Of a DNA stretch of 64,000 nt, positions 1,026 through 37,655 are shown piece by piece; position 1 is the stretch's first letter, and every line of letters begins with the position of its first letter. Under the pieces are notes generated by a model. That model was given only the letters and a program-made list of their open reading frames with translations. It was not told where the DNA came from and ran no database searches. A program made the translations under genes and the position numbers. Source of the stretch: Candidatus Omnitrophota bacterium (GTDB lineage Bacteria > Omnitrophota > Omnitrophia > Omnitrophales > Aquincolibacteriaceae); assembly GCA_030698625.1 (NCBI GenBank), contig JAUYMS010000003.1:83471-147470 (forward strand), given 5' to 3'.

Positions 1026-4000
1026 ACCGCCGCCATCTCCGCAGCCCAACCGAACTTATTTTCACTCCAACTGCCCTCAGCCCTCGGAAACGTAGAAGAG
1101 TCGTTTCGCGGACTCAGTACAAAGACAGTCATTCTCATCCAGGACGCACATGATTCTCTCGAAGCCCAAGAACATATTGCGGAACTCGTCGACCACCTGG
1201 TGGCAGAAAAGGGAATAAAAACCGTTTACGAAGAAGGTTATGAGGGAGAGGTCCCAAGCGATGAGCTTTTTGGTTTTATCGAGGACAAGGATCACCGGGA
1301 AAAGGTGTCCTACTTTTTTATGGATCGCCTAAGAATCGGCGGCGCCGAATATGCCCACATCAACCGTAAAAAAGATTTTCGTCTCATCGGTGCCGACAAT
1401 ATTGACCTGCACATCGAAAACGTATCACGGTATCAGGATCTGTCCAAGACAAAGCGGGAGACGGTTGAAGACCTTCGGGCCCTAATCGGGCAGGTGACAT
1501 CTCTGGCGCACAGGTATTTCCCCCAGCCCCTTAAGGAGTGGATGAAACTCAAGGAGCGCTTTGAAGCGGGGAAGTTGGGCCTTACCGACTATCTCAAGCG
1601 GATGATGGCGCTCAGCGACGGAGTCGAGGAATCCGAAAGCATTACGGTCGGGCCTATTATCACGCTTCTTGTGGCCGCCGAAGCCTCGGGCGACGACAAG
1701 CTCCTGGAGCAGATCCGTGATCTCGATCCCAAAGCGGTATACCGTGAAATCGCCGACCTCGAAGACCGGCTGGCCGGCATCTACGTGGAGACGGACCGCG
1801 ATCGTCATATTTTCCGCTTCTACCGGGACCTGACCCTGCTCGGACGCTTGAGCGACATCGCGGTGACTCAGACCGAGTATGGTGCTGTTCAGAAGGCCCT
1901 GGCACGATTTGATACCCAAGGGTTGGCGGAATTTATCACCAAGAATACCGGGAAGTCGGTCGTGCTTTCGCGGCAGTGGGAGCGTAATATCCGCAATGCG
2001 GTGCGCTTCTACGATGTGGCCCATGCCCGGCACAAGGCCCTGCGCCGCCGCCTTGAAGAATTTAAGTCCGATCCCGAAGAGGAGACTGCCGCGCTCGTCT
2101 TCGGAGGTTTCCACACCGAAGATATTCGTGAGATCCTCAAAGAACTGGATATATCCTTCCACGTTGTTTCACCGCGGATCACCGAGATGAGCGAGCGGCA
2201 TCAGAAATATTACAAGCGCTTGATGTCGGCCGGCTATCATGACTTTGAATTAAACGACAAGGTTCGTAGGGCGTCGCGCGCCGTGACTTACTTTGAGCTC
2301 GATGGCAGCGCCGCAATCATCGCGCGTGCTCATGATTATGTGCGGAGTGAATTGCGGGATTTGCCGCGCGAAATTTTGAATACCAATATTGAAAAGCATT
2401 TGGGCGGCGAGGCGGTCTTACAAGCGGGCGTGAAGCCGGAAGCACAGACGGACGCGGATTTGCTTGGTCCGGCGCCGGGCATCGAGAGCGTTGTCGGTTC
2501 TGAGCGCTCCGAACTTAGGCGTCTGGAGTATGGGGGGACAACGCTGTTATTCACCGCAGCGGCCGGAAGTGCGGCCGCAGGTGCGGTCCTCGCATTCCTC
2601 CTGCCGTGGATGGGGCTGAAGGCTTTGGCCGCTGCAATCGGCCTCGGGGCGGCAATCGCCTTTGCGGGCAGCGCCCGCAGCCGTATCGCCCTTGCGTCCA
2701 AAGTTCGGGCAGCCCTCGGGGAAGTCACCGTCATCGGCAAGGGTTCCTACACCAATGTCATGGGACACGAGTCCCTCACCAACAGCCTTAGGCCTGAAAG
2801 CACAAAACTCTCACGCGGTTGGGTAATCCTGCAGAAACGCGGCGCAAAAGCGCTCAAAGACCTTGAGGAATCCGTCAAAGGACCGCAGAACCGCGATGCC
2901 GAGGAAAAGGCTGTCTATCAAGCGCTGTATAAACGGGGATTGGTTCCGAAGACCGTCTATCTTGGGCTCATGCCGATACGCGACATCAAGATCAAACCCA
3001 CCGACAGAAACATGCGCGGCATTTACGACGATGCCGAAGGTCAGTTCCGTAAGGACCGGAAGGACAAGGACAGCCGGCTGCCGGATCACCGCAGCGCCGA
3101 TATTGTTCGCATTGCCATTCAGGAAGAGGGCCTGCCCCTGCATGAATATTTCAAGCTTGTCACCGCGAAAAAAGGCACGGCCATCACAGCGCTCGTAGAG
3201 TTTACCCAAAAGCTTTGGGGTGAGGGGTTCATCGACCTTGACCTGCGCATTGATAACTACATGGTGAAGCTGAAAAATGGAAAGCCCGTCACGGATGCCG
3301 ATGGCAGCCCGGTCATTCTCCTGCATGACTTCGGGGCCGTTTTTAAACTTCCGCGCTCGAGAGAAGGCATCGAGTCCTTTCTGAAAAGCACGATCAATAA
3401 GTCCGACATCTCAGCCGGATTTTTTCTCCTTAGAAATCTGATCCACGTCAACCGCAGCTTTGAGCAAGCCGGCAAAAAAACTATCAAGGTGTACAGCCCC
3501 ATCGCAGACTCCCATGAGAATGCCATTGCGAAGAAGCTTTTCCCCGGCATGAGCCTCAAGGGCATTGCCGAGATGTATGTGCTGGGCCGCAACGAGGCGA
3601 ATCACGTTTCGACGGGCTTAAAGACCTATCTGTTGGAATTCTTTCAGCGCGACGGGCGAGGAGAAGTGATCGAAGGTCATATCGAGGAACTGGCGCGTCG
3701 TATTTTCTTGGCGCTTACAGAAGCAAGCGGCGATCGTGACGACCGCACCCGCTCGGAATTAAGGGCGGCGGATGCGGGGTGGATGGCAGAGCTTGACGAC
3801 GCGTCGGCGCATCAGCTGGCCGTCGACGTGATGCGCCGCCTGGAGCACGTGAGTCCGGAGACGCCTTACGAAGCCAAGTTAGGGGCGGGCAGTGTCTTTA
3901 AAATGGGCGAACAGAATATTGCGGTCGAATACGGCACAGCCAAAACAGGCGGTTGGTTTAGTAAGGACACCGCGGTGATGCGCATTGGCGCGCTGGTTTT

Positions 4001-7000
4001 TGTTCAGCTGCAGCGCGGATCAGCGCGCTCTCTTACGGCACAGCTAAAAAAGCACATGATAAATCTGGGGGATCTCTATCAACAGAACCGAGGCAACATC
4101 ATTTTCATGCCGCCCGCCGACTACTCACGGCCTTCAGCCCAAGACCCCGTGCACATGATTACGCAGATTGCGGTTGCCGCCATGCTGGCAAGCCGTGAGT
4201 CTTTTCCGGGTGCCGTTGTCACGGATCTGGGCGCCGGAGACGGGTTGCTTTCGCAGATTGCCCTGCGGTTGGGGGCCAAGCGGGTCGTCTTAGTCGACAG
4301 GAAGTACGGACAGCTGAGGAAGGCCGAAAAACTCCTTCGAGGCCAGGGCTATGACCAATTTGAATTACTCGAAGCCGATCTGACCGATACCCGCTTTATC
4401 AAACGCATCCTGGAAGAAAATCTCGACCGGGAATCTACGATTGCGCTCGTGAATATCGGACCGCATAAGCGCCTCTACGGCGACGCGAACCGGATCGTTA
4501 TGGAGCGAATCATGCGGTGGACCGGCTTGGGGTTGATTATCAATGCGGGATACTATGGCTCCGGGTGGATCTTCCCGGAAGCCCACGACGAGGAAATTAA
4601 GTATCTCGAAGAATTGCTTCCGCACCATGGCTTTGAAACGACGGTCTATGAAGACGGTATGGGTTGGCGCCGGGCCCTGACCGCGAAGCGCGGCGCGCAA
4701 CGCTCTGAGTTAAGAGCGGAAGAAGGCAAGGCTGAATTTATCGCGCGTATGGAACAGATCTTTGCCGGCGTGAAGCAGTCGGGAAAAAAGCTCGGCACGG
4801 AAGAGTTCGCAGAGCGCATGGGTTATCCGGGGCGCTGGGTCACGGCAAGAAATCGCGCCAAGCGTCTGGGTTATCCGCCCGCGACCTTGCAGCAATACGT
4901 TGAAACCGGGGCCGGAAAGGGCAGGGCCAGGGAAACCAAACAGGAATTCGCGGCGCGCCTGGAAAAGATTTTTGAATCCGTCAGGAAGTCGGAGAAAAGA
5001 GAAAAGATCTCGCGCAAGCTTTTCATGCGCTTAACGGGTTATACGAATAAGTGGGATGCCTTACTGCAGCGCGCGCGCAAGGCCGGCTACGCGTGGGAAG
5101 CCATCAGTCCCTATGTGGAGGCAGACGAGGCCCCGTCAAAGATTGAATTCTTGAAGCGGCTCCGGGCGATTGCCGACGCGGTGAAGCGCCATAAGAGACG
5201 CGACAAGATTTCGCGTGATTTCTTCATGCGCCTCATGGGCTATCCTGAAAATTGGACTGCGCTTATTCAGCGTGCACGCACAAGCGGCGTTACCCTGGCT
5301 GACATTAGTGAATTTGTTGAGAGTGCCGAAGAAACGGGGGTCGATGACAGAGGCCGCATACGCGAAGAGCAGCTTCGCGATGCCGTCACGACGGCCAAAG
5401 AAGAATTCGGTATAACGGGTCAAAGCATGCAAACCCTGAACCGCGCAAGGCGCGCCGAGTATCTGAACCGCGTTGCCGCACTTGTCGGTTACACGAACCG
5501 AAATAACTTCCTTCACCTTACCGAAAAAATGGGCGTGAATCTCGCGGCATTCGACATTCACCGCCTGGAGCGCCTCGTTCCGTATACGCTGACCGAAAGC
5601 CGCCAGTGGTTGATTGACAATCTGCCGAAGCCGGAGGATACGGAGGGCCGAAGGAAGTGGATCAGCACGATCATGCATCTTACCGGTATGGGGATGCTCG
5701 GCAGGACGGCCGCTTATACCTTGCTGCGCGCTGTAAGCTCGGGAGAATCCGGATTCAGTGAACTCGACAAGCCGGTGGCTGAAGAACTCGAACTGGATCT
5801 CTCGACCGTCTCCTCGTCGCTGCTTGGTAAAGAGCCCGTATCCATGGACCGTTCCCCGAATCTCCTAGACTTTTTTGTCACGGCGGCCAATCGCAAACTC
5901 GAGATCGAGCGGCTCAACCCATCGGCCCGCAGCCGTCAGATTACGATGACCCCGCTGCTCGATAATCATCTCTTTCCGTATCACTTGGAGCAGATGCTCA
6001 CAACACAAAGAACGAGCACAAGGGCAGGGGTGCTGGTCGAAGAAGTGATCGGGGAGTTGGGGAGTGAACTGAATGCGGAGGAGCGTACGTTGCTGCGGGC
6101 CGTTGTGCGGGCCCGTGCCGCGGGCACGCGCTTGCGTTATCAGACACATCGAACCGTTACCGCCGCCAATGAAATCTTGTTTGGGACCCGGGAGACTCTT
6201 GGGAGTACCGGCGTGTATCACAAAGTCAAAGCTGCCGTTGAGAACAGCGAAAAGCTCCGCGCAGCATTTGAGGCTTTGCGGGGTGATCTGGATCTTTCCA
6301 CGGACCGTTTTGACCGCGGCTTTTTCGAGTGGCTTCATACCGGGGGGTATCTCCATGACGCCGAGATTCATGGCATTACGCGGCTTATGGTTTACGACAT
6401 CGAAAACGTACCGTCGCCGCATCTCTTGCCGAAACTATCGCCTGAAAACAAACAAGCCTTTGCCGTCGCCTACTTTAGAAACCATCACTTTCAGCAGATT
6501 GCCGAGAATAGCGCCGCAGTCCTCGATGACCCGGGCCTTCCGGTGCATACGCTCTCAGCCGGGTCTCTGCGGGGATGGATTCAGGGGCGCCGGCCCCGAA
6601 AGATTGTGGGCGGCATTCGCAGGCTCGAAGCCGCTCTGAAACCGGGGAGTCCGGTTCAAGAGGTGCGTGAAAGTTCTACGGAACACGAACGTGAAACAGG
6701 ACAAATACTCGCGGGCGGGGGGCACAATAAGGATCTGTTGAGTTTTATTAACGGCCTGCATATGCGAAGGGCGAAGGTTGTCGCATTCTTTAATTTGGCG
6801 ACAAGGATTTCAGAGTCGGTAACGGGTCCGAAGGCCCTTGAGCTGAAGCATGCCTATCAAACTTTGCTTCTTGGGGTACTCAAGAACCCTGAATTGGAAG
6901 TCGACTCAACGCCTGTCCATCTCATGCTCATGAGCACGATTGTTAACCACCGTCACGACGAGGCGTTTTTAAGAAAATTCTTCGAGACCTTACTCGTGGC

Positions 7001-34000: not shown

Positions 34001-37000
34001 CCAGGTAAGACTCTATAATCAATATCCGGAAGTAAAATATATCATGCATTCGCATGAGTACGTGGAAGGCGCGCCGTTTACCGATGAAGTGTATGCCAGT
34101 GAGGCGCTTCAGGAATTTGACGAGATCGTGAAGGTGGTCGGAAAGGAGCCGGGCGTTAAGAATGTTGCCGTCAATCTGAAAGGGCATGGCAGTGTCGTGC
34201 TTGCCGCCGATCCGGAATATTTGCGCAATACCAAATATGTCTCCCGGACTTTTATCAGCGAGAGGACGGAAATGAACGCTATCCTCGTAGGCGGCCGATT
34301 TGACGGCGAGGGCGGGACGCCGTCGGCACTCATCCAAGAACTTCACGGGGCGTTCCCGCCGGGCGTGACGCTGCACAATGGCGGATCTATCGAAGAGTTG
34401 ACTGCGCTATTCAGCGGGTTGAGCGAGTATGAGGTCATTATGTGGTTCCCCGAGATTCCGCGGGGAGAAGATACCCTTACGTCGAAGATTAAGCTGGTCT
34501 ATCCCTTCAAGAAGCTCATCACGGCGGCCCACAACCGAAGCGGCGACCGCCCGTTCCAGGTGATAATGGACAAGGCGCTCGGCGTGCGGAGCAATTTGGT
34601 TGTCGAATTTTACGACGGCGAGAAGCCGGGCATGCGGCTCTTGGACCCATTATCCAACCAATACGGTGATACTACAGACCCGGCGCTATTTGCCGCTGCC
34701 ATCAGGGAGCGGCTTGAGATCATGAGGAAGTTTACGCGCCAAAGAACGGTTTTGGCGGGTGAAGCCAAAGTGCCGCCGAGGAATGCAGAATTTGAAGAAT
34801 ACCTCGGAATCATCCAGGCGTACGGCGAGAAAGTGCATGAGTTGATTCATCCGGCCGAAGGTGTCAAACGGTTCCTCGGCAATACCTCATTCCGCGCTTC
34901 CTATATGTATCCCGACGCTGGCTACGACGACCTGGTCTACATCTCAAGACGGAACGTCGATAAGCGCAATCTCGATGAAACCGGCTTTATCGCAATCGAG
35001 AAAGACTCGTTTAAAAATAGGCAGATCGGCTACTATGCGGACCGGGATCCCATCACGGGCGAAGAGCAGAAACCGAGCGTAGATACCCCGACCCAGGTGC
35101 GGTTCTTTTCGAAACTGCCGAACGTGAATTTTATCCTGCATTCCCATGTGTATATCGACGGCGCACCGTTTACTGAAGCCCTGTGCCCGTGCGGTTCGCT
35201 CGAAGAAGTCGAAGATGTTCTAAAACTCATCGGTCATGACTACAGCAGGACGAATTTCGCGATCAACCTGCGCGGGCACGGCAGCCTTCTCTTCGCACAA
35301 AGTCTTGATTATCTAAAGGAAGATCACCCGTACACGGCCCGCCCGCTTCCCGAGCTTCTCAATACCGACGGATCCAAGGCGAGAGCCGCTGACTACTTGA
35401 AGAGCCCGTATATTCGCGAAGCCCGTATCGTCGGTGACGGAGAAACCGTTACGGCCGAAATCTTGCCGAACTTCGAAACCCTCGAAGCCTTTGCCCGGGA
35501 GGAAGGGCTCTACACACTGCGTGAAGTCGATCTTCGGAACGATCCCGCAGTTTATCAACTCTTTATGGATATCGCCGGCGGTGTCAACCGGCTGCTCGAT
35601 GAGTCCGAGCATATCCGTAACATTGTCCTTTTAAGTTCTCCGCCGGGCGCGGACAGGCAGCAAATGATCGATACCGCGATAGCCGAAACCGCTCTGGAGG
35701 AGACAACGTCGGCGTACTTCGAGAGCGAAGAATTCGCCCGGGAGATTCTCGCCGTGCCGGGCCGCGAATTGCCGGAAGCCTATGTCAACGTACTGCGCCG
35801 CGATTTTCGTGCCGGCCGGTCGGGGCATTATAAGCGGCTTTTAGGTTTTACGGGTTCCGGCGAAGCCATGTTCGAAAGCATGGAAGAGTATTTCAATAGT
35901 GATGCGGCGGTTAAGATCTATAAAGTTCTGTTTAAAGGGCGCGTGGCGGGCAGAATTGTCGTCAACGAGAGGACTAAGACACTCATTGATGCGATCGTTC
36001 TCGAGCCCTACCGCGGAAACTATCTCGGCGATGCCGTGATCGGGCTGCTCGATCAAAAATACGGCGAATACTCGATCGTGATCCCGACCGGTGTTCCTAT
36101 CTATAATTTTCTCATCAAGCGGGGCTTCAAGGTCCTGCACTCGGAGTCGTTCGGCGCCATTGACCTCGATATCATCAGCCGTACTTCGCATAGCGAAGAG
36201 GATTTGGCGCCGGTAAAGGATGTACACCGTACGATATTCGCGCTTTATGCAAATGCCAAGATGGCTGATTTATCGGCTGCGGCGAAAGACCCGAAAGAGA
36301 GCGGCCTTTACAGGAATTTTCCCGAAGTCTACGATCTGCTCTATCAAAGGTTTTCCAGGCGTTTAGGGGATTACCTGGGCCTTGTTAAGGAGAATACTCC
36401 GGATGGCGGTGCCATCATGGACGCCGCTGCGGGAACGGGCGAGGTATCGGTGCCGCTGCTTCAGGCCGGCTACCGGGTCCTTTCAGCAGACCTTAATGCC
36501 GGAATGCTCGAACAGTTGCAGAAAAAGGCAGGCGAGGGCAGCGTTACGGCAAATACGGCCGTCGCAAGCTTCCATGAATTAGGCGATAGGGAGGACCAAT
36601 TTGATACGGTCAGTGTAAGGCAGGCAATCAATTATCTGGTTGGTGAAAAAGAATTGGTCAGCGGCTTAAAGGCGTTACGCAAGCGGATAAGAAACGGCGG
36701 TAAATTCGTGTTCAACGCGCCGAATTACAATCCCGCGACTTTTACGCCGCCCGAGAGAGGGCCGGATCATATCAAACTGGGAACGATGAATGCGATTGTG
36801 TGGGAGAGCAATGCCATCGATGAAAACGGCATACTAACGCACCATCAGCGCGCTCTCGTGTGGGACGACAACGGCCGTGACGATGTCCGTTACTATCATG
36901 ATAAGAATACGTTTCAGATGTATACGAAGGACGAACTCGACTCCGCTTTGAAAGACGCGGGTTTCTCCGAGATCTCGTATTACTCCGAGCACGGCAAGGC

Positions 37001-37655
37001 CTATGACCCCGACGGCCCTGTCCTCTATGGTGTTGCAACGGCAAGCGAGCGCTCCGAGCTGCGGACAGCGACAACGATTGAGGATTTGGCGGCGCGGAGC
37101 AAGGACCTCTCGGCGTATGAAAAGGTAGCGAAGGCGATGCGTAACCTCAAGCAGGCTGCCACGGTGTTTGTGGACTTCAATGATCTCATCAAGTTCTCGG
37201 ATGAGCAGTTGGAAGAGTTCTTTGTGCTCGGCGCGATGAATCAGCGGGCCGTGAAATTCGTGGTTTACAACTATCACAACCGCGATGTGGACGCCAAACT
37301 CGGTGCCTTTCTCGCGCTGCACAATGTCGAAACACCGCGTATCGATGATGCAACTGCCTTTGAACGTTTCGGGCTCAACGAAAAGCGTACGGCAATTCAT
37401 TTCTCCAAATTTGCGCCGGGTAAGGACCCGAAGAGCCGCTGGAGTACATTCGCGGCTTCTAAGCTCAAGCGCTACTACCGCTACACGACCGAAGAACAGG
37501 GTTTGCTCGGCATTGCCCTGCTTTACGCCAATTTCGCGGAGAACCTGCCGGAACTCGTCGAGGACGAGGGCTACATCATCGGCACAGCTGAGACCATCAG
37601 CGACCTGGTCGAACGCTACCTCGCCGAAGACATTGCCGTCTCCATAGCCGCATAA
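906..37655 (+). CDS. Giant multi-domain protein. It is 12,250 aa counting from TTG 903, but ATG 906 with an AGGA ribosome-binding site 9 nt upstream is the likely start. It has a Sec signal peptide and mosaic enzymatic domains separated by recurrent RSELR motifs.
   Basis: Single uninterrupted reading frame of 36.7 kb in the ORF track. N-terminal positively charged segment plus hydrophobic core and an AYA cleavage-like site. Recognisable domain motifs throughout (see sub-features). RSELR occurs 15 times in frame. Confidence 0.85.
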   Translation: MRKKNFKRGFCIWQKLTAAFVSVCMILLSVVEYVPAAYASTAAISAAQPNLFSLQLPSALGNVEESFRGLSTKTVILIQDAHDSLEAQEHIAELVDHLVAEKGIKTVYEEGYEGEVPSDELFGFIEDKDHREKVSYFFMDRLRIGGAEYAHINRKKDFRLIGADNIDLHIENVSRYQDLSKTKRETVEDLRALIGQVTSLAHRYFPQPLKEWMKLKERFEAGKLGLTDYLKRMMALSDGVEESESITVGPIITLLVAAEASGDDKLLEQIRDLDPKAVYREIADLEDRLAGIYVETDRDRHIFRFYRDLTLLGRLSDIAVTQTEYGAVQKALARFDTQGLAEFITKNTGKSVVLSRQWERNIRNAVRFYDVAHARHKALRRRLEEFKSDPEEETAALVFGGFHTEDIREILKELDISFHVVSPRITEMSERHQKYYKRLMSAGYHDFELNDKVRRASRAVTYFELDGSAAIIARAHDYVRSELRDLPREILNTNIEKHLGGEAVLQAGVKPEAQTDADLLGPAPGIESVVGSERSELRRLEYGGTTLLFTAAAGSAAAGAVLAFLLPWMGLKALAAAIGLGAAIAFAGSARSRIALASKVRAALGEVTVIGKGSYTNVMGHESLTNSLRPESTKLSRGWVILQKRGAKALKDLEESVKGPQNRDAEEKAVYQALYKRGLVPKTVYLGLMPIRDIKIKPTDRNMRGIYDDAEGQFRKDRKDKDSRLPDHRSADIVRIAIQEEGLPLHEYFKLVTAKKGTAITALVEFTQKLWGEGFIDLDLRIDNYMVKLKNGKPVTDADGSPVILLHDFGAVFKLPRSREGIESFLKSTINKSDISAGFFLLRNLIHVNRSFEQAGKKTIKVYSPIADSHENAIAKKLFPGMSLKGIAEMYVLGRNEANHVSTGLKTYLLEFFQRDGRGEVIEGHIEELARRIFLALTEASGDRDDRTRSELRAADAGWMAELDDASAHQLAVDVMRRLEHVSPETPYEAKLGAGSVFKMGEQNIAVEYGTAKTGGWFSKDTAVMRIGALVFVQLQRGSARSLTAQLKKHMINLGDLYQQNRGNIIFMPPADYSRPSAQDPVHMITQIAVAAMLASRESFPGAVVTDLGAGDGLLSQIALRLGAKRVVLVDRKYGQLRKAEKLLRGQGYDQFELLEADLTDTRFIKRILEENLDRESTIALVNIGPHKRLYGDANRIVMERIMRWTGLGLIINAGYYGSGWIFPEAHDEEIKYLEELLPHHGFETTVYEDGMGWRRALTAKRGAQRSELRAEEGKAEFIARMEQIFAGVKQSGKKLGTEEFAERMGYPGRWVTARNRAKRLGYPPATLQQYVETGAGKGRARETKQEFAARLEKIFESVRKSEKREKISRKLFMRLTGYTNKWDALLQRARKAGYAWEAISPYVEADEAPSKIEFLKRLRAIADAVKRHKRRDKISRDFFMRLMGYPENWTALIQRARTSGVTLADISEFVESAEETGVDDRGRIREEQLRDAVTTAKEEFGITGQSMQTLNRARRAEYLNRVAALVGYTNRNNFLHLTEKMGVNLAAFDIHRLERLVPYTLTESRQWLIDNLPKPEDTEGRRKWISTIMHLTGMGMLGRTAAYTLLRAVSSGESGFSELDKPVAEELELDLSTVSSSLLGKEPVSMDRSPNLLDFFVTAANRKLEIERLNPSARSRQITMTPLLDNHLFPYHLEQMLTTQRTSTRAGVLVEEVIGELGSELNAEERTLLRAVVRARAAGTRLRYQTHRTVTAANEILFGTRETLGSTGVYHKVKAAVENSEKLRAAFEALRGDLDLSTDRFDRGFFEWLHTGGYLHDAEIHGITRLMVYDIENVPSPHLLPKLSPENKQAFAVAYFRNHHFQQIAENSAAVLDDPGLPVHTLSAGSLRGWIQGRRPRKIVGGIRRLEAALKPGSPVQEVRESSTEHERETGQILAGGGHNKDLLSFINGLHMRRAKVVAFFNLATRISESVTGPKALELKHAYQTLLLGVLKNPELEVDSTPVHLMLMSTIVNHRHDEAFLRKFFETLLVAAHGMSARVSNREAANMLARTIQGSAVYLAAGPKGPITREGLVHAYQRSAAEKKRYLKVQTVRDDAEFRLMGSLAVPVGLRPDNVYFSKLYNAVIAKVYAPVRVISDEDAAGHKVRNRSPKTLRHVRESQKFDLAKIRSEADEHRRRLRQAERLAYDFWGTQGEPGYWPEEKVKGYIWTHYRRWVREVVWENGRRDMGSHDGVDMEDLMDLARDSVAYVGYTYNAPEEFTLNLDDPGSPEERHAMITGVEALVQEKDATLKEFELMVKDKDKDATELKRAGFGLKKAERAKAYVESVLTLHRHYLEGDAEKAANVYFDLAEQRETIERNIMRSLFTSYLRPSILHYKSRRAVKQAFFELKAISLDQPLPDGDGELMDIAIPVLRSRDEEAVIVDDPRLASFRSIAIKQHFAQVRTSALSDTDRDQYIMRLYYGLEPAYAGVDLTQTDIATIVAFHGGALITDERIRQIIARHDKDIFRRVVHLAQADNLKSWDTFMLQLGVKEPDDAPPPVVIPIEENESKIWLGSHIWIATLGDHAGKYLSFKIIAYDRYNPRSADAGYNNVELQKRIYPYMLEIVVRDPTKPEKGNENLVAVFHVHVIHRPTGSVQQLPIIAVRGKPHYFLRVDSGAHDSTLEPAAEKVDRDQGERPEPTEVPEEPVREAAIEEPVDRFKDWHESAIPHLQRQLKSAQATSLGHPDFEELAPVGEHGRIWVAYQKGNVERKAFFHTGIAGEGQAWVGRRYDLSKSLYVYRIVRVSDTGEAESTRYYRLDLDDHGQPTAMGFREFKYDGSVWEKVSIPGPFWLKQRSELRSASNTDDFDPRLIDTYSRLFVEGLLNTVESEGYPEPYQGAVKEARSRLNAVDMPSLADVLQPVEAALKIPVTLDGLSGAADETKVYELARLQYKVRALNKFRVPIREFIKNLMERAEFAARIQSSTEGPVRMGLIHFEEEGHKSGQYSNGLADIVIDWMSTWDASVNAIVFRNIRFDYFFNIVGLANALQSKFFPDAPDPDALVVLLRESLRNAVVWGNKSRPDNLAAIRWRFEGEELVIDVIDRNREEIDFTKKPEPPRGVKPIYYSPRTDPASGGYPGDIKPFIDPAFLTGDRYDFPILDKSGRRLGQVLHLRYPYPQRSELRDEDDEEVLGYVADHADFDTTGFITSRFSGGSNVVGLGDLHTNLAVKAQTIDLIRSGEITHLVMELNGEDLNKALKNRESLREAIRRHFEILVINDEDIESFVDVILAAQTAGVELVFPDPRKTSRPDDPGQETVDMEAALAIGSIVRSDQDAKVLVLFGAEHTRRGLRWPRKEGRSRLTLGENLKTEEGVRYYSVYLESPDRRDTSDYTLVRGDKYRQQGFALTNMASFPRQMLDRAADTDFFRPEEIDAYVQLPLLSYEDYRTLVAAGEDLPKFVLPEFTEDLAVKSSVGENEPERRRAIREKAARLVALLRTQPDADWPIEEMVEEFNGFRLDVSEYAPEIGVIYLWLSPTDSFTISVPTYFAVPSQGIVVHAPEFSDDRYEDEIIQLPIEIAKLLNGNEIEKDSSGIFSPAGSDIYWKEWRQRHAYQYYRTLVGPIGAGAVQAILARESGRKWRVVDFFAGDGSFLRYLSKHLATVQPDTDVDYAMVEKFSELIDQAPRTLAGTAVEIHQADIRHLQDVKAIIGKKPVIVTAFGGLNSGVVKQDDAEAIAKRIYAALPAGSYLVLGGYSAMMVNAKELAAMGFEVLNTGLPHYMVTEDREAPNQLYILRKPYPWYRGGLWRSELRSAFDYDAYRKRQEAGLEVILEEIDALRTDGRWEKMPLSARLQLIGERADVVPLDWGAWLELLEKTGMWFGPEREKMEDPTDQVEATMTGDYQILQAPSMRQPQQGETYSRYLTSYGACDCLVLTLYHPGTKVGMIDHLYLERKKNPAERIAGALKTMHEEYGIDPREVRAEISGGQMDLSNFKAIQILEALETHEVPIYFFQALDFPLVMLDGYYPYAEGDGHVALDLETGRHYRLHDIIPPAQKRRHRSELRKGKPIEDYLKELENEKAVFGPDNAGEFSESHRYVDGILKKLILTAGFDPAEYSLYLVDDPEPKAWIQGRYPAVFISLGLLRFFGRHRLSQDALAHLLAHEVLHLRQHKEDEHYSGPSSWSEYYAEYYANEYDADVRALRLMAEAGFSIQDAESTFEKLREGMGKNDYSPLGSYPQMRTRSDRIKQIRDYGRWPDSARAAPQAMPQEVLREAMRFSLRRQKWHRANRINQVKELSELIETADALNDLTFILWSGLGRLKKRRVLKSAKVPHAVESALVTRLAALPIWPEYLSADTRDLAAKLLGKFLAATVYGKFMERTVLIDHELLNEKALLDELSEIFHSAKNAKDVLDLISAAIFVTMPQRIALGRETAGDAQKSYAAYQNRWHAEPRRGGDTVGWVYTWEQFLGRALLEEVPYVPIAGRQVRWGPFIRVVGWIQGAVRFVLGRFVSIDWIQVRDPLAGWTAADLGRVYEAGAGRTWGGYHIGPMRHSNVVGIDHWLFQAAINHPELVKAMDTDTFRRFVKDATKIAVAKGPGHSDDPETQEAKMRNMIYEAASLDAAKREVIQNLLGNDYDVFGFFRTGIESFPDTWIFGENAPGTGYAYAEKRMDDLIRQLHARRGSISGMVLHHSEVLHASDRLAESAKLTQTEHLRLMAHLAKTEWYSADMMWHSLLGWESGRVQWIPSFLGQADDELNAFIDLDLRARLGDGVWESLPVTGRFIFYAYLNDIYQLPADWEAWDREVQSWSTEQIRLLHRVVAQSTNRPVFDTDARLDREAIDRRPPLPYRRSREELLLRLSVLGLLKEQGVSLKKYLPPVELGRSAPSGAFGFADQLADLPRGRKEDNPRVRRAMDHLFHMFRLEKGRSPWINRTDIEKNGEQGMTAILGYVFAETGETPADMADRIAHWLPATAYRNWVLYLIFMHHYLGRTLGVKIDRKRLGDTSYMAEVWASVSDNQRESARHFIREKIAPLMVQDARLEGLNLARVFDHFIHEKLHEVDEAAYEKALPGFQDVRYFVPGTVLTQLDLMMGGVFSPGISEQIADAASDPQDILEQISTAYPRASAERDRLLVELADHARADSGVLKDIMPLLDGPWYKQEIGVRALRSIRASQSTTSVDDSLKLIENWLPSATPIRDGLLHEVIQEEVGTLPELNAVEEKLFALQPNEQRRLRGNQAVALMGLEFFQAIFGYGTPMASKLDLLDWFFFEGGKPDILRRYEFHFRISFEGFIEESGDLAKNEPEVAREVRKRLLAFVLDGDQGILSDDDATDELFNRLLARWLPENTEFDIVIRTVLESLIGLSDRLRKREILMHLLAGPDDLSALGNDPELRQAKVAKLILEANGLVGIKVGQVLANSALVTDMPVPMRTELANLQDRADPMDRAVSLRILDQIHNGKLHDHYPRIGRVLGSASTSVVYDAWHRSGRHVALKLLRPTARNRTVGDLAMLKLIPADVIERLNAKNIAIPEWLENYLGLLVGRVERLVMPELFYTVEAQSMDRFRVRQLARGSALRIPEVVENPGDDLIAMELIEDAVPVSDEAGINTRGRQMGDVRRDIAQEMIVEVHEGEYHGDPHPRNFLVDKDGRLWMIDLGAVYEVSPKSAAFLISLVAALHMGADIRPILADLLTANADPAALESAISEAARVETIPEKIAQIFLTLDQQALLPEDLALTQRLFLQGGHIFEGLSLWDLMQIGEQLKDGPQRSELGSETPVVREGLRPDLTPFIGIGVHRKDHLSYGNSAAIEGAEKLTDFLRDRDLLHEIQLTVETEAQSQIGREIASKLDRVPDATMRLIVDGAFMQKCCSEAVLGIFDHLEAKPGRFAELHLPLDLILYWDDRQMRDSPPEEKEEYIAMQVLPNLERRGFGYKAYGVNHQILAERDPPKGGETRLVVKLWHSAKEMENWADSLAAKPLRSELRALEPVMPVKKVLVMTGEYSYMPFDKEREWERYVVDYLRKAGVEAEFVYANGAGGTLRRFEEEFDEIGLVIATDDVLRGVRERERLIGRNPVPYILMKTTYLRMDEPELEELGNAVYVHSGLGTLDELKEIIPEIVGNAEGAVYEPFWTGEGIEAKPAREGVEHPAVELLEELRQDLTNPTFLKKIYRDTTDYDAEPLTARFTLIPGYSLPAFPMTPASFRDDVHRRIIKEVYSILPHVIEFPVEATGRAPVVIGADSDEGIARWAKTMRVGSRFDQWISDKMPLVHIEQSLNRIMTEIDGKERANKALRRSVYRKLGWRVHDLEIKSEAAGDEAGQTIFNVMGTWLLANPEAVTRAWVAEDEDGAAAGMLVLKRTIANETFGEHREMVNSAIAIASDAATRGKGIAPRMIRESFEAMRQRGIRYYFADIDYRNKPSFRTFIKTAAAAGATVTHFPEMTTSREEERPFLIDLFSDQPAPRDLPEALPSDPDEAWAYVLAQGLMQEPSDEYSWTPPAADGDRAVREYRVKDVTEEIEADEDAGTWIDFQELYDDKVHAKLRDITEYPDPAGHEAMMRGFEVQPDGSFDTVKLEDGAYSAIVRIADRAAVQDTQQAFRKFVDAIAKVFPADVRDQVRVWETGEDNPHIGTAVFQVPEVLLGGKQPRLQPRHIEPLQELVREMTQDEETIPLTFLGYGIGADGGFVRLYSDPAGRFMKLRNALLLKGHKVSQMYASGRGTNIIAMTGGRILHLPYSADAAIAARQKDRVLEIVRDRAQAFQSQWEQNLAEPQILDVDGLTWVLEDKWLTERNEQGVEDVFFPFGGRSELRSLSEDLLAELAAEYAVSRLTSGRNSAEEQELMLKTMRSDVHKAILWRYKGLEFELRERIEEVVFEAVQAAVRTYDGVRLSYLDYFYATAQEAILHFFAKSVPAAKRPYLLSEPLEAYLRFLSLENRRPELDEFLGLTVNDMKNEDYLVLQRETDAANYEDSISVPVRAAAPENQLPKPVQIANAGMVRLAKAFGIQAADITAAMIHSVPNTEWAVLSLFFGIDGELIQDPEQIARRLTELGYRDANNEALRGEKVSDYVVRGLNRLQNRETGRTRLADALGKKPTEITPDLLQALTSREEALIRYKFGIGKSRLMTHLEIAEKLTKEGFSFNDGVHVTKTLYRILQKLKTAQTGWQLLAADLGKPEEEARRDFEKNAAKMTQLETLAVTHYYGLGVNRIKDKTRLAKHLSDLTHETIRRNRLYRLLARGLAVLRGEKKRVRVKSAYQPPIISEIPEEVGVTGDELLQVMRAAAGDQSLAEALVPVRDAWYALHPLGREILIINFGLGVTAAKSLPEISKRLKESPYWVEKSDPAKTTLTRHRRLALADLKQRVSGLNRLAEDTGVSEEYLPGIISQGLALEQKRVLKMTFGLDTERIVPDKLIVDIFRDAWSEEINAMRVRTVRRDALQRIREFAVNAGYADESVLTKRKKDMSKRTPRPPKWTRERVDQLIAESADEKLRATILHRQGLGGLVNAASGFYGSWQKALEAHHRDITKINIRKTPQRSELRADSPELSDSRDAEYKKRLTDILEQRALIMELRELEPASDEMVAVILERLGEYAASAKASLVDVEDFKFVLRLVTNPAWRTGKFSEKMKALTHLWGYVVFTAVREHRMNPQLRSSVDHLITDMLGAEFENRAPLRRILINTEVGSPYHEKPLHGEEQMLGSDFVYLIKSLAKNLNLSGRLAERNDRLVGPILRAFEGRYDFTLTEAERGKILQLMEGNDLLAIFVSAMDNGLTRPPSREMTLEDIRKIRGKFREVVADSIGSYPVSARDRILVRILQKQPELGRELMAEAQAAVSYSRKPIDFEAAGASTVKRRKGVNVADTEGFGDFAVKHPDLHAVLTSRESLLTLMQTAALVRDFFPYTLTAPDKLQTPVQFAIEYGMYLPLGHGYYLTPISGSFKRHLLFTMDDKNRPVMTVPIKIPGKIPGRRPALNGDLDRYRDAREVFGDDMEIAGAMGTVEPAGLESVMLYGEEREVTEKDHLRVLVLEGPEAGWRVEYLRHKDLQRISDHYPKYHGDASLVADDIARSILRGVAQWHALNYLGKGPGEGSGTDLHTGNWELLTPPLNGDPEQGISVRNIIDLASLHQYVEDRAAFDGQRMWDLKTVIDARDVLTGPGVTFSLLALHLKENEHDFLEDPHDLFEKYTAIYSEEYEAVKQIAKRPPPMSYREIYTTILGETHEAPLIITGLTGAGKTILAENYEKYLREGEVEVPAHLVHSDGFLRYSVMALLIRLLITLGWIKVDALTKEGFIQRHYFDLEKRDRFVDEVKAGKYEGKQLVIEGIFSDILFAQALNAKTLLIEANSASVYEERYVDRSMKDKKRLKLPAQFLARTLISNRLNQQLLDSRENHDLVLNLDDIFKPKLTVNRPPKKAELRRSGLLKVIVDALTAPAGIRERLTADGVKFGSVPEPYVSTFDLEGLPWVFTQYRNEDKDSPLLSLDELKEQALTLTGTLEVKFDGGARNAGVFLGYVQEVPHPVVIKYFQAGVSDMDAYDRALELYMAQIVAFSGVGPEFYGVLVEDGEIVGYAMQAAPGAFATQTSDLLYLMRYLYQSGDADNKAVQQNVMRIEETMARYAMVPVDGHLNVLLSRTGHISLIDAGNVRPASELAEFRMPSWMSSEEKVKQLFQLMQAYLQKRRPLITRRGAIHTLLDHTQAEHAAPLVSVTTREMMKDGLHESLVKYVRQGGHLVLTTPAFKEEAFLSAIDGIHRNFAETGEIELLGRIHFIASDNNLKDIFVYESDAGGYRLLPDDPMEPDPLLKLVRYLNTAGRKVLPLMSYDYESASVPRRAYFDTAHRVFSQTPHAGKYVAIWDIEEITERLAERAPEELEKGRKELPAQQDFMEWTFESTPFEVPAGNQVKVIVGEKGRGAPGFVWAGVNDWEKTYLIPLVQNPATGRHEAVLPAGTTAFTFYWRDSPKAAGERWEGRDFHVRSAERSELRAAAVNITETVLPNAGLKGMASQDAKVLIAELDGDFLLESKTWPERNARTFTAAERKIFETGEGLTPFSEFDLTHDDVASVTHSIYDRTSGIIGIRAAVEDKAGTVRYIRFSGAGTNEMEKLKTLMPPISEMTAEGTVLRVSAGNQGDLAGNFTVHSRKERGWEFFGANDEPWRGARYKAFVQLENGKRMLGEVELVGEAKDNRIKQVFITPVGGRERVELDAMQTRSVIVAYTLGWGETPADELLRKNYAMSSDIRHLLAFPFFRGGPQFYNQTVLTRERYKAAMNFRPLDFDIVDMTGNAIPVAELLGQLDKYGYVAKDTADEVVKPGDYFIADENNIRLIFHPAVYPVNILVTSQDGEKAAFVSIQGVSGNLGANYWNVFEWIQEQLPWAFAAFALDNGKDPSWQSYNEDGTEAELLVTGRDLVNATVLVTKRDGFQRSELRLPARTAEEMMTRREFIPRAALAVAAGLVVLYESPNIVLAADEEKGEVTLFLLSHGTVEDFETVKPHVEAVIKRLLDAGKTVHYFVEAADLEAELSLTSLIYAALAPDQSADLREVFGNLYTEPLPEAFLETSFEQDQLFVPLLQGVERGLQYMKDHNEIPADRIADYELVLKLLPVLRKIKEKFRGIVRGTASPDSDDVTREVAIERLTKLFDEFYDATDHSYEPDGLAKAPFAHRLHYALNRDKDGKPWGFWGAQEMYLREGTFAPELGTRLLVHRERLLTPGQLDAYTTASVQYSKLFEALGFPGNPKSVIEIEGKFPEAVFYATQGTAEERLALVRKAYYEAGARFESAVMGGRDRALSQEAVRLTPEDKDASVITRGLAHVAAGRLLADNAATDVRDMKQIQGRAQPAVDAPNTEAELREMRGGNPGDAIKLKVGQHMVVGLISDLVREVHKDHLKAYRERYENLAAGIPDTLQGEDREKEIEKQMNQAPYFRAMDPAPLPKRLERFFVEDRRSIWNAMADHPEQVEEFLLQAFRIHAAYQRVVAATLRKKKETEPEEDPVEMAGRIYATYLAMLKLRSASIPTPLEAEELPFKLITKAVADGVYEGDVKTFLDTFEAEAEKVMDFKPSLLRRERYRSELRDDEPVKEIPLYMAYARHLNAADTFDFAKPFFDEAIQKTSRKDGRPNGIMIIEHVDSNLAAMFMNAMHRVVDPVQFPDSVVGAWFRQQLTIPKQWTPYEKMESFLVQYRQDQPFRTEVDNQYQAFLKHIGVERIYGIYDLKQRIGPASVLQHAELDYFIEKGIGQAALEPARFETAATAYLFGELDKEIRQALTQRRYDDAANLHLKSIDLLEDSGKVRDRIMNQFVGELIREDPERAIYHFRGFNHERNHDLLTGDGQKAAGVLVGSRLGQRPVFSTTTFQAMDGAEKNLLLIHFMNEVLDHLLHEEKLSSHRSIQEFLAFHLSLTQGLEREFKSLEQPEDYDAWFREIFDAANETVQRKSLSLGLALLEVLEERNILSRSELRTEGGDKEKPRGQITRRTFLDWMVKAANAAAAASGVSPGALLEAAVSIPAEKPDLSLAALARRFAHNPDSLKELEQGVAWLQAFTILYGTDKKEEDYELGLINLKLAVLDGVRTRKESEGVTALSEEEAASRLETALNSLESIAQSEGLKKAPHLLERLRSLMAEPFSFKAALSARTALIRHAWGTVLGPRSELSRVAKDVAEWYGRDLRAAQAVMAEIAEQLTPEGFRKIRQRELIFERNMDNYFDRSLLPEIARGEAEIDWSNLLEDDYRARMSRFKDLAGQLPAAVRKQVFANPKVREAERSYRQWQRESWKRKEERETSADPESLKMIIVGGRFDDEGGRPSSLVNQIHAALPAGTKRVNGGRFDAIPGLAKTLADYDVIIWFPDIPNDKAKYRNLKARYPDKLLVTSKRNHEGSYSDLEVVDHALKLKSNLVIEFSDTIPFNMRLLDPLGNVYEDTQDASSLAKSMTRRLKVIAKVRRQGTKRVAVASPVKVPDEPEFFDIIRDQAARFHEIMSERRPETEENEEFCFRCERGFPSMREGDFAFVSKRGAANTERHFTRKDMVPVDLASFRETGEINFYGPNKPAVDTPVQVRLYNQYPEVKYIMHSHEYVEGAPFTDEVYASEALQEFDEIVKVVGKEPGVKNVAVNLKGHGSVVLAADPEYLRNTKYVSRTFISERTEMNAILVGGRFDGEGGTPSALIQELHGAFPPGVTLHNGGSIEELTALFSGLSEYEVIMWFPEIPRGEDTLTSKIKLVYPFKKLITAAHNRSGDRPFQVIMDKALGVRSNLVVEFYDGEKPGMRLLDPLSNQYGDTTDPALFAAAIRERLEIMRKFTRQRTVLAGEAKVPPRNAEFEEYLGIIQAYGEKVHELIHPAEGVKRFLGNTSFRASYMYPDAGYDDLVYISRRNVDKRNLDETGFIAIEKDSFKNRQIGYYADRDPITGEEQKPSVDTPTQVRFFSKLPNVNFILHSHVYIDGAPFTEALCPCGSLEEVEDVLKLIGHDYSRTNFAINLRGHGSLLFAQSLDYLKEDHPYTARPLPELLNTDGSKARAADYLKSPYIREARIVGDGETVTAEILPNFETLEAFAREEGLYTLREVDLRNDPAVYQLFMDIAGGVNRLLDESEHIRNIVLLSSPPGADRQQMIDTAIAETALEETTSAYFESEEFAREILAVPGRELPEAYVNVLRRDFRAGRSGHYKRLLGFTGSGEAMFESMEEYFNSDAAVKIYKVLFKGRVAGRIVVNERTKTLIDAIVLEPYRGNYLGDAVIGLLDQKYGEYSIVIPTGVPIYNFLIKRGFKVLHSESFGAIDLDIISRTSHSEEDLAPVKDVHRTIFALYANAKMADLSAAAKDPKESGLYRNFPEVYDLLYQRFSRRLGDYLGLVKENTPDGGAIMDAAAGTGEVSVPLLQAGYRVLSADLNAGMLEQLQKKAGEGSVTANTAVASFHELGDREDQFDTVSVRQAINYLVGEKELVSGLKALRKRIRNGGKFVFNAPNYNPATFTPPERGPDHIKLGTMNAIVWESNAIDENGILTHHQRALVWDDNGRDDVRYYHDKNTFQMYTKDELDSALKDAGFSEISYYSEHGKAYDPDGPVLYGVATASERSELRTATTIEDLAARSKDLSAYEKVAKAMRNLKQAATVFVDFNDLIKFSDEQLEEFFVLGAMNQRAVKFVVYNYHNRDVDAKLGAFLALHNVETPRIDDATAFERFGLNEKRTAIHFSKFAPGKDPKSRWSTFAASKLKRYYRYTTEEQGLLGIALLYANFAENLPELVEDEGYIIGTAETISDLVERYLAEDIAVSIAA
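2520..2700 (+). other. Two predicted transmembrane helices (GGTTLLFTAAAGSAAAGAVLAFLLPWMGLKALAAAIGLGAAIAFAGSA) immediately after the first RSELR.
   Basis: About 50-residue Ala/Gly/Leu-rich hydrophobic stretch flanked by charged residues. Begins 5 residues after RSELR at 2505-2519. Confidence 0.5.
3050..3420 (+). other. Protein-kinase-like fold domain 1 (catalytic-loop-like DLDLRIDNYMV and DFG motif ILLHDFGAV).
   Basis: Order and spacing of D-x-x-x-x-N and DFG motifs typical of ePK-like, RIO, Kdo or LPS kinases. Motif-level only. Confidence 0.35.
4140..4560 (+). other. Class I SAM-dependent methyltransferase-like domain 1 (motif I VTDLGAGDGLLS, followed by an acidic motif II VVLVD).
   Basis: Gly-rich DxGxGxG nucleotide-binding motif, then a hydrophobic strand ending in an acidic residue about 20 aa later. 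Rossmann-like periodicity. Confidence 0.55.
4722..5330 (+). repeat. Three tandem ~68-aa protein repeats (consensus …EF..RL..I…VK…KR.KIS…FMRL.GYP..W.AL.QRAR..G…..IS.YVE).
   Basis: Read from the translation: repeats start near 4722, 4941 and 5141. They are conserved at the amino-acid level but diverged at the DNA level. Confidence 0.6.
11640..12240 (+). other. Class I SAM-methyltransferase-like domain 2 (motif I RVVDFFAGDGSFL).
   Basis: DxxxGxG motif with hydrophobic beta-strand context and a downstream LVLGGY strand. Confidence 0.4.
13250..13620 (+). other. Zincin-like metalloprotease motif region (LAHLLAHEVLHLRQH; HEVLH at 13344-13358), M48/SprT-like context.
   Basis: HExxH embedded in a hydrophobic helix. 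A downstream Glu/His-rich segment (KEDEHYSG…EYYAEYYANEYDAD) could supply a third ligand. Confidence 0.45.
17090..17940 (+). other. ABC1/UbiB-family atypical protein kinase domain.
   Basis: N-terminal ABC1 signature GQVLANSALVTDMPVPMRTELANLQDRADPMD (compare GQxLSxRxDLLP…LxxLQDxVPP). Nucleotide-binding segment IGRVLGSASTSVVYDAWHRSGRHVALKLLRP. Catalytic HGDPHPRNFLVDKDGRLWMIDLGAV (compare HADPHPGN…IDFG). Confidence 0.75.
19900..20160 (+). other. GNAT-type N-acetyltransferase-like domain (motif A IAIASDAATRGKGIAPRMIRESFEAMRQRGIRYYFADI).
   Basis: R/Q-x-x-G-x-G/A acetyl-CoA-binding-like motif followed by a helix and a beta-strand with an aromatic residue. Motif-level only. Confidence 0.4.
22170..23190 (+). 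repeat. Array of at least four sigma-70 region-4-like (LuxR/ECF-like) helix-turn-helix repeats.
   Basis: Repeats LTSREEALIRYKFGIGKSRLMTHLEIAEKL…TKTLYRILQKL; LETLAVTHYYGLGVNRIKDKTRLAKHLSDLTHETIRRNRLYRLLARGL; LHPLGREILIINFGLGVTAAKSLPEISKRL…TLTRHRRLALADLKQRV; LEQKRVLKMTFGLDTERIVPDKLIVDIF…AMRVRTVRRDALQRIREF. All fit the pattern L..RE..VL.LRFGL……TLEEIG……VTRERIRQIE.KALRKL. Confidence 0.45.
25480..25900 (+). other. P-loop NTPase, uridine-kinase or PRK-like (Walker A LIITGLTGAGKTIL at about 25534-25557).
   Basis: GxxGxGK[ST] preceded by a hydrophobic strand. A downstream acidic or hydrophobic Walker-B-like strand (QLVIEGIFSD). Confidence 0.5.
26380..26800 (+). other. Protein-kinase-like fold domain 3 (VVIKYF beta3-Lys-like, DGHLNVLL catalytic-like, ISLIDAGN DFG-like).
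   Basis: Motif order and spacing as in APH, choline-kinase or ePK-like folds. Motif-level only. Confidence 0.35.
29157..29255 (+). other. Internal twin-arginine (Tat)-like signal peptide MMTRREFIPRAALAVAAGLVVLYESPNIVLAA|DEE, located 8 residues after an RSELR site.
   Basis: T-R-R-E-F-I matches the S/T-R-R-x-F-L Tat consensus. It is followed by a hydrophobic h-region and an A-x-A (LAA) signal-peptidase-like site. The position is internal (aa ~9419). Confidence 0.5.
33207..34271 (+). repeat. Duplicated module, copy 1 (~355 aa): a Rossmann-like domain (MIIVGGRFDDEGGRPS…) plus a class II aldolase/adducin-like domain (…YIMHSHEYVEGAPFT…NLKGHGSVVLAA).
   Basis: Clear collinear amino-acid similarity to copy 2 over the full length. 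HSH and GHG metal-ligand-like motifs at positions typical for class II aldolase or epimerase folds. Confidence 0.55.
34272..35325 (+). repeat. Duplicated module, copy 2 (MNAILVGGRFDGEGGTPS… / …FILHSHVYIDGAPFT…NLRGHGSLLFAQ).
   Basis: Same architecture and motif order as copy 1. DNA diverged, so this is an ancient tandem duplication. Confidence 0.55.
36380..37030 (+). other. Class I SAM-methyltransferase-like domain 3 (motif I AIMDAAAGTGEVS; motif II RVLSADLN; post-I FDTVSV; motif III GGKFVFNAPN).
   Basis: All four canonical class I methyltransferase motifs in the correct order and spacing. Confidence 0.65.

Follow-up and report, generated by a model that had tools for sequence, protein, structure and literature searches.

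Giant proteins of the bacterial phylum Omnitrophota reach from 10,000 to more than 100,000 residues, and whether they act whole or cut is an open issue in the field. In a 2023 description of such giants post-translational cleavage was suspected and the cleavage points were stated to be unknown, a lack that blocked structural analysis (West-Roberts et al. 2023, bioRxiv 10.1101/2023.11.21.568195). A 2026 preprint describes a "multi-enzyme" class of Omnitrophota giant proteins and does not mention cleavage (10.64898/2026.06.07.730766). Here we analyzed a window of 64,000 nucleotides from a Candidatus Omnitrophota bacterium (GenBank assembly GCA_030698625.1, contig JAUYMS010000003.1, positions 83,471 to 147,470 of the forward strand; coordinates below count from the first letter of the window), in which one open reading frame (ORF) of 12,250 codons at 903-37655 (+) carries the pentapeptide RSELR sixteen times. 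The motif is almost certainly a selected signal between modules. The best explanation for it, and a fairly probable one, is proteolytic processing at the motif, in which case the giant ORF would encode a polyprotein precursor.

The 12,250-residue protein is like the multi-enzyme giants in phylum, in exceeding 10,000 residues and in combining many unrelated enzyme domains (methyltransferase, HATPase, GNAT) of which none is dominant. Judged by its translated sequence, it fits that class (at least 10,000 residues, many distinct domains, few repeats). However, neither paper on the Omnitrophota giants gives a delimiter or cleavage motif or an architecture of header, delimiter and tail, and the C39 and S8 domains suspected there as proteases were not found in the 12,250-residue protein. 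The polyproteins of picorna-, poty-, flavi- and coronaviruses share with it a long ORF, unrelated units, a short conserved peptide in flexible junctions, a recognition sequence that varies with lineage, and protease-like modules within the precursor. In contrast to the viral genes, the one described here is a cellular, chromosomal gene amid nuo, atp and nusA-infB-pnp, its cargo is metabolic and regulatory with some Sec and twin-arginine translocation (Tat) signals, and its cleavage is one that we infer.

The MARTX toxins are also very large bacterial proteins, and their effectors are released by a C80 cysteine protease acting in unstructured linkers. One of these effectors, RRSP, belongs to the fold superfamily to which the first module of our protein, here called the header, is predicted to belong. 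Unlike in MARTX toxins, neither RTX repeats nor a C80 domain were found here (Pfam, E<=0.01, whole protein). The MARTX sites are loose (after Leu) while those described here are an invariant pentapeptide, and MARTX is processed in the host cytosol whereas the Tat signals here point to the cytoplasm of the producer. Units lying between short recognition sequences are likewise found in the repeat precursors of the kexin/furin type (nematode polyprotein allergens, neuropeptide precursors and fungal precursors of ribosomally synthesized and post-translationally modified peptides) and in cyanobactin precursors, where a specific protease acting in trans releases the units. In those precursors, however, one small unit is repeated, as opposed to the large unrelated enzymes here, and R-x-E-x-R is neither dibasic nor RxxR as in the kexin/furin type.

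Conserved short recognition sites at the junctions of autonomous units are one criterion for a polyprotein, and such sites are present in the 12,250-residue protein. Polyproteins with specific sites are already known from viruses and, more loosely, from MARTX; the setting, the motif and the cassette of header, cargo and tail appear to be new. Full-text literature searches returned no work in which RSELR, RSEVR or RSEMR serves as a delimiter and none on polyproteins of Omnitrophota, in agreement with a preliminary description of this stretch of DNA, whose author knew of no described system that uses the motif.

The RSELR motif in the 12,250-residue protein

In a six-frame translation of the window RSELR occurs 16 times, always in the frame of the giant ORF. 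Numbered from 1 to 16 and all on the + strand, the sites are at residues 481 (2343-2357), 535 (2505-2519), 950 (3750-3764), 1267 (4701-4715), 2839 (9417-9431), 3164 (10392-10406), 3792 (12276-12290), 4045 (13035-13049), 5965 (18795-18809), 6791 (21273-21287), 7521 (23463-23477), 8962 (27786-27800), 9406 (29118-29132), 10051 (31053-31067), 10435 (32205-32219) and 12050 (37050-37064). The preliminary description had counted 15 sites, all of which are real and in frame where it placed them; the RSELR at nucleotide 2343 (residue 481) had been missed. From the composition of the protein 0.035 copies are expected, close to the earlier estimate of about 0.03, and the Poisson probability of 16 or more is ~2e-37. 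Every other 5-mer in the giant protein is present in at most three copies.

Variants of RSELR with one mismatch are not enriched (3 seen against 2.1 expected), and therefore the motif within the giant protein is all-or-none. The previously noted RSELG at residue 5755 (18165-18179, +) and an additional RSELS at residue 10629 (32787-32801, +) may be chance or decayed sites; of 268 cases pooled from the relatives described below, 248 have R at position 5. At the DNA level the 16 sites comprise 15 different 15-nucleotide sequences, in which the first Arg is encoded by five codons, Ser by five and Leu by six. As the codons vary synonymously, selection is on the peptide and not on the DNA, and the signal is not a DNA repeat. 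The spacing between sites runs from 54 to 1,920 residues, a wider range than the 200-1,700 residues reported before. The flanks of the 16 sites are almost without information, with a weak preference for Q or E at position -1 (8 of 16) and for small or acidic residues at +1. At -1 the flank bias described earlier is local to this protein; pooled relatives prefer A, S or G there.

The motif and its variants in related long proteins

An exhaustive HMMER search with residues 3150-4348 gave 173 matches (P numbers here denote database proteins), which fall into discrete blocks bounded by the three RSELR sites of the query. The block at query positions 300-634 has many stand-alone homologues of 310-450 residues with C-termini 5-10 residues before the RSELR at residue 3792. 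Only P0041 and P0042 have a best-matching stretch that reaches more than about 20 residues to either side of a site, and each has its own motif at the aligned position. The site at residue 3792 keeps its place behind the methyltransferase-like module (residues 3450-3783; 11250-12251, +; recognized by Pfam, many stand-alone homologues), with RSELR, RSEVR or RSEMR in P0011, P0151, P0042, P0069, P0022 and P0041, even though these six proteins are only 25-31% identical.

Several of the matching proteins are themselves long and hold multiple copies of the motif. P0011 (3,597 residues) has RSELR nine times, and its contig encodes a second giant protein of 8,315 residues with four RSELR within the first 1,837. 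Both P0042 and P0151 (3,932 and 6,061 residues; listed by NCBI under "Candidatus Omnitrophica") carry RSELR, RAELR, RTELR, RSEVR and RSEAR. In P0069 (3,802 residues) there are four RSEMR along with RAEMR and RSEIR, and in P0022 (1,120 residues) three RSEAR and two RSEVR along with RAELR and RSELR.

A metagenome scan with an alignment of the header yielded 80 loci (L-numbered), and the motif was counted in the ORF holding the header. R-[SAT]-E-[LMAVIF]-R is found at least once in 75 of the 80 header ORFs and at least twice in 60; most of the others are short truncated ORFs. In the pooled 183,737 residues there are 81 RSEVR (0.3 expected), 72 RSELR (0.5 expected), 59 RSEMR (0.09 expected), 37 RAEVR, 35 RSEAR, 20 RSEIR and 16 RAELR. 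A logo of 384 sites has R at 100%, S at 72% or A at 21%, E at 100%, V, L, M, A and I at 30, 24, 20, 12 and 6%, and R at 100%, giving the family consensus R-[S/A]-E-[V/L/M/A/I]-R with R1, E3 and R5 essentially invariant. Lys in place of either Arg is nearly absent (4 cases versus 248). The pooled flanks are rich in S, A, G and P upstream, with S, A or T and then E or D downstream, and the propensity for disorder is maximal within about 15 residues of the sites, where the flanks are S/A/G/P/E-rich. The median spacing of sites in the relatives is 278 residues. Motif density is 1.86 per 1000 residues in the header ORFs compared to 0.046 per 1000 in neighboring ORFs of fewer than 1000 residues on the same contigs.

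The search of related genomes and metagenomes proposed in the preliminary description therefore found the motif present in orthologous giants. Its central claim, that RSELR acts as an inter-module delimiter, is borne out: the signal shared by about 80 related ORFs, the conserved site at residue 3792, the homology blocks and stand-alone homologues that end at sites, and the disorder-prone flanks all argue for a delimiter under selection.

Individual proteins have a preferred variant, such as RSELR in L144 (12 of 12) and L125 (9 of 9), RAEVR in L091 (10 of 10) and RSEVR in L161 (13 of 17), and ORFs of one contig tend to share it (L125/L154 and both giants of L082). Two header-bearing ORFs, L111 (from nucleotide ~10001) and L117, have almost no RSExR; in them GFG, mostly as xGFGA, occurs 15 and 9 times against about one expected, the first copy directly after the header, which is the place of the first RSExR in other proteins. 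In P0085 GARL(A) occurs six times against 0.08 expected. The spacing of these substitute peptides resembles that of RSExR. An unrelated short peptide in the same architectural positions is the outcome expected of a changed recognition specificity.

Delimiter-bearing long genes are often tandem or divergent neighbors on one contig (L086, L107, L131, L087, L165 and L082), and hence one genome carries several of them. In L083 (nucleotides 3621-21796; GCA_002787155.1) a further ORF of 2,126 codons, with two RSELR, lies ahead of the P0042 gene in a different frame. Since a related assembly has the single 6,061-residue P0151 in place of the split gene, the split is probably a frameshift or an assembly error.

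The relatives also share an architecture of header, cargo and tail. The first 480 residues of the 12,250-residue protein consist of a signal peptide followed by the header of about 390 residues (residues 52-441; 1056-2225, +), with the motifs IQDAHDSLEAQENIA, EEGYEG, GAEYAHINR and GGFH. The signal peptide (906-1022, +) is of the Sec type, beginning MRKKNFKRG, with a hydrophobic core and the end PAAYA before S, and this AxA-type end is kept in homologues. Fourteen database proteins match the header at 35-51% identity and two remoter ones at 26-29%; it is likewise found at the N-termini of P0011 and of the other giant encoded on the P0011 contig. P0155 is a true stand-alone header of 431 residues with a real stop codon, unrelated genes after it and no motif.

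In an AlphaFold2 model of residues 2-600 (15 sequences), residues 52-440 are confident and the predicted local distance difference test score (pLDDT) is below 50 from residue 442 on; the sites at residues 481 and 535 are both in this low-confidence part. A double site, 30-65 residues apart, is common after the header in relatives as well. The model gives the header the fold of the TIKI/EreA/ChaN/TraB superfamily, which includes RRSP, and in a Foldseek search the four best matches are to EreC and BcR135, with a weak E value of 0.02. D81-x-H83, E110/E111, E149, H152, R155, GGFH404 and H433 are 99-100% conserved in 81 headers and include candidates for the 2His/2Glu catalytic constellation of the superfamily. 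The 28-residue spacing of H83 and E111 equals that of H85-E113 in BcR135 and of H3902-E3930 in RRSP, the His-Glu pair of the superfamily (PMC6254334). The header differs from TIKI, erythromycin esterase, ChaN, TraB-PrgY and RRSP in having Asp for the first Glu, in a large helical insertion and in lacking a sequence-level match to a Pfam model or PDB chain: none of 15 header sequences matched the Pfam families TraB_PrgY_gumN, Erythro_esteras or Cofac_haem_bdg, and the header profile matched no PDB sequence.

At the other end, site 16 opens a conserved tail module of about 200 residues (37050-37652, +; ending VSIAA) that is homologous to the last modules of relatives, being found in 28 of 42 other complete motif-bearing proteins. 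The tail modules of L086, L104, L106, L133 and others end in a hydrophobic VIS(T/K)(S/A)A-COOH. The tail has no invariant catalytic-type residues, and a role as an enzyme was rejected on that ground. Cargo between the two ends is reused: residues 1267-2838 match residues 1574-2698 of L131, there bounded by RSEMR and RSEIR, and residues 535-949 match residues 714-951 of L144.

Proposed cleavage at the motif and rival explanations

Targeting signals are found shortly behind several sites. Fifteen residues after site 13, at residue 9421, is the Tat-type signal TRREFIPRAALAVAAGLVVL (29163-29252, +), which scores 17.6 bits with TIGR01409 against a cut-off of 16.7. The Tat-like motif TRRTFLDWMVKAANAAAAASG (32259-32357, +) at residue 10453, 18 residues after site 15, has a weak h-region and no match to a hidden Markov model. 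These are the only two occurrences of [ST]RRxF in the 12,250-residue protein. The second giant of L082 reads RSELR-VDNRRMFLKKGLAAAISSVL, and in P0151 a transmembrane (TM) segment lies 6 residues after RAELR. Similarly, one or more TM-like hydrophobic segments (residues 548-590; 2544-2672, +) at the start of module 3 begin 13 residues after site 2.

The 80 ORFs and the 12,250-residue protein contain seven internal twin-arginine motifs that have a hydrophobic h-region, and six of these are placed 9-27 residues after a site (binomial P = 1.5e-6, the counted zone of 5-45 residues after a site being 7.9% of the sequence). With TIGR01409, two of the signals in related loci do not reach the cut-off (scores of 15.5 and 13.0), and the signal at residue 10453 and three others give no match; the Pfam TAT model did not match the short peptides. 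Tat and Sec signals work at N-termini. Because these signals sit just after sites, the N-termini of the modules would have to become free, and signals of the Tat or Sec type directly behind the delimiter would be the strongest argument for cleavage.

Under the cleavage scenario, the 36.7-kb gene would encode an operon-like polyprotein, translated as one chain, in which at least 17 autonomous modules make up one precursor. These would be the hydrolase-like header with its Sec signal, a membrane module, several methyltransferases, an M48-like protease and an ABC1 kinase, GNAT and P-loop modules, two modules with Tat-like signals, duplicated class II aldolases with a methyltransferase, and the 200-residue tail, joined by short flexible linkers carrying R-S-E-L-R. 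A sequence-specific endopeptidase would bind R-[S/A]-E-[V/L/M/A/I]-R and cut there. As positions 2 and 4 vary between the fixed R, E and R, the peptide would likely be bound in an extended conformation. The cut would likely fall after the second Arg, since +1 is mostly S, A or T and other cut positions would leave a destabilizing N-terminal Arg or Leu on many modules. Cutting would free the modules as separate proteins and expose their own N-terminal targeting signals.

Candidates for the protease would be the header, the M48-like module or an unlinked enzyme. Given its modeled fold, the header is a plausible specific hydrolase. The M48-like module (residues 4054-4305; 13062-13817, +) scores 22.5 bits with PF01435 against a cut-off of 20.3. 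Its HEVLH (at residue 4148), EYDAD and GSYP..R align with the HExxH, EY(D)AD and consensus GSHP..R of homologues, one of them named an M48 family metalloprotease by NCBI, with Tyr in place of the His of the HP motif. By these features (HExxH, acidic ligand, family model) the module would be classed as a peptidase of family M48.

Several observations weigh against cleavage as just outlined. The header has a Sec signal peptide of the signal peptidase type and is thus probably periplasmic, while most modules (enzymes dependent on S-adenosylmethionine or ATP, and Tat substrates) should be cytoplasmic. The header is found without the motif and the motif without the header, the latter in P0151, P0069 and P0022. 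The M48-like module was not found in the ORFs of the 80 loci, and around these loci there is no conserved neighbor gene or protease, the largest neighbor cluster covering 7 of 80, and no protease tied to the motif. L103, L107, L138 and L162 carry the motif not in a linker but within the folded tail, including at 22 residues from the C-terminus. Lastly, distant headers head 18 Omnitrophota proteins of 2-5.8 kaa (thousand amino acids), 17 of them without an enriched motif and one, P0085, with GARL(A). An M48-like domain is present in most of the distant-header proteins without a motif (3-5.8 kaa; P0140, P0032, P0043, P0115, P0084, P0028, P0171, P0117 and others), several of which bear the annotation AarF/UbiB kinase. 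The 12,250-residue protein holds the header, M48-like and ABC1 domains of this distant-header class in expanded form.

Some of these observations would suit an uncut docking or recognition peptide, with a partner binding each linker of the intact giant and thereby organizing, folding or regulating it. Conceivable partners are scaffolds, chaperones and secretion adaptors, the header or the tail itself, or an enzyme that modifies Arg, for instance a methyltransferase module, of which motif-bearing proteins frequently have some. The copies inside folded tails, together with motif-like sequences in the last helix of other tails, and the absence of a protease linked to the motif favor docking, and a sharp invariant motif with lineage variants would suit any specific binder. 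However, the Tat-like signals and TM segments right after sites need a free N-terminus, the stand-alone homologues stop at sites and lack the motif, and a swap to the unrelated GFG or GARLA in the same positions is easier by a change in protease specificity. We therefore consider docking unlikely. Of the two candidate functions raised in the preliminary description, the protease site is favored given the Tat and TM signals just downstream, and the docking or linker element is less favored.

A signal acting during translation, either a nascent-peptide pause of the ribosome for co-translational folding or a 2A-like skipping of the peptide bond, would agree with the position between modules and with conservation at the peptide level, and a 36.7-kb ORF presumably poses a problem of co-translational folding. 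Yet the known arrest and 2A peptides require a longer stretch of conserved sequence upstream, which the nearly uninformative flanks do not offer, and the exchange of L, V, M and A at position 4 along with the GFG swap points to a co-evolving factor acting in trans and not to the conserved ribosome tunnel. To our knowledge no bacterial mechanism of pausing or skipping uses RSELR, which also counts against this possibility, and we regard it as quite improbable. Modification of the Ser or self-cleavage at it (phosphorylation by the ABC1 or HATPase-like modules, glycosylation, or an N-O acyl shift) deserves still less credence, despite the basic and acidic context of the Ser and the kinase-like modules in the same protein. 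Position 2 is Ala in about a fifth of the logo sites (21% of 384) and in all ten sites of L091, making the hydroxyl dispensable. The Ala variants rule out Ser chemistry as a general explanation; at most, the Ser could have a role in some lineages.

There is next to no likelihood that the motif arose by chance or from composition, is a DNA repeat or belongs to a repeated domain, given the Poisson probability above and its recurrence in independent metagenomes. RSELR does agree with the published signature of PL7 alginate lyases, R(S/T/N)E(L/V)R, but no alginate-lyase family was matched in the Pfam search and the flanks of the 16 sites are mutually unrelated, ruling out this origin. The 15 different 15-mers, with synonymous codon families all used, rule out a repeat or restriction-site artefact at the DNA level, and a repeated protein domain carrying the motif is ruled out by unrelated, uninformative flanks and by internal repeats that are few and off-site.

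Proteolytic processing may extend well beyond this gene. On this broader proposal, many Omnitrophota giant genes would be operon-like polyproteins built as a cassette of a secreted TIKI/EreA-like header, cargo and tail, and a dedicated endopeptidase, possibly the header, would cut a programmable delimiter (R-[SA]-E-hydrophobic-R, or else GFG(A) or GARLA) to yield dozens of ordinary enzymes and exported proteins. We consider the case for and against this proposal to be evenly balanced. The delimiter gives concrete predicted cut points and allows giant proteins to be split computationally into modules for the prediction of structure and function. If cleavage takes place, a free-living or epibiotic bacterium would make exported proteins and unrelated enzymes in the form of a virus-like polyprotein, which would change how gene counts, operons and limits of protein length are read in the phylum. 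Biotechnology would also gain a new and very specific pair of protease and site, as Lys is not accepted for Arg. Were the operon-like reading correct, an expression strategy previously known only from viruses would be encoded on a bacterial chromosome.

Genomic setting and further features of the gene

The giant ORF spans 903-37655 (+) of the window; TTG is listed as the start at 903, and the likely start is the ATG at 906. On its 3' side are nuoI/N/M/L, genes for an F-type ATP synthase, nusA-infB, truB, ribF, pnp and dut, and the setting is that of an ordinary chromosome. NuoN encoded near the giant gene is 64% identical to that of a Candidatus Omnitrophota metagenome-assembled genome, with the next matches at 46-54% from Omnitrophota, Auribacterota or unnamed organisms. 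Given this and the annotation of motif-bearing homologues as Candidatus Omnitrophica or Omnitrophota, the host is by protein similarity a member of the phylum Omnitrophota. In none of 80 related genomes does a giant ORF adjoin nuoN.

Directly 5' of the giant ORF is a gene (161-703, +) that is not kept beside related giant genes; its product of 180 residues has a hydrophobic N-terminus and contains an SseB N-terminal domain (E 1e-16). About 13-15 kb downstream of the giant gene are a gene for an M28-family peptidase (50954-51880, -), for which no link to the motif was found, and tRNA-Gly(TCC) (52673-52743, -).

Pfam and PDB sequence searches of the giant protein detected scattered domains only: class I methyltransferases, a weak HATPase match, the M48-like peptidase, an ABC1/UbiB atypical kinase domain (residues 5424-5663; 17172-17891, +; Pfam), GNAT, weak AAA-like matches and a duplicated class II aldolase. 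Only about half of the inter-site intervals contain a domain that Pfam recognizes, and not every one as had been stated in the preliminary description. No homologues of residues 481-1316 or 9406-10055 were found in a word-indexed database, a scan of genome contigs with residues 4045-5754 gave no match, and neither did a PDB sequence search with residues 1-4200.

Internal repeats detected by self-BLAST are few and coincide with no RSELR site. They include tandem units of about 70 residues at residues 1271-1533 (~4713-5500), a repeat at residues 6974-7223 (~21822-22571), and the duplicated class II aldolase-like unit of about 340 residues at residues 10767-11472 (~33201-35318); the match of residues 3946-4056 with residues 9958-10062 is caused by the motif itself. 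Cys is rare, with only 10 in the 12,250 residues (0.08%). Eight of these are in close pairs (CxC, CC or CxxC) at residues 3914/3916, 5854/5855, 10970/10973 and 11428/11430, the last two pairs falling in the duplicated aldolase region.

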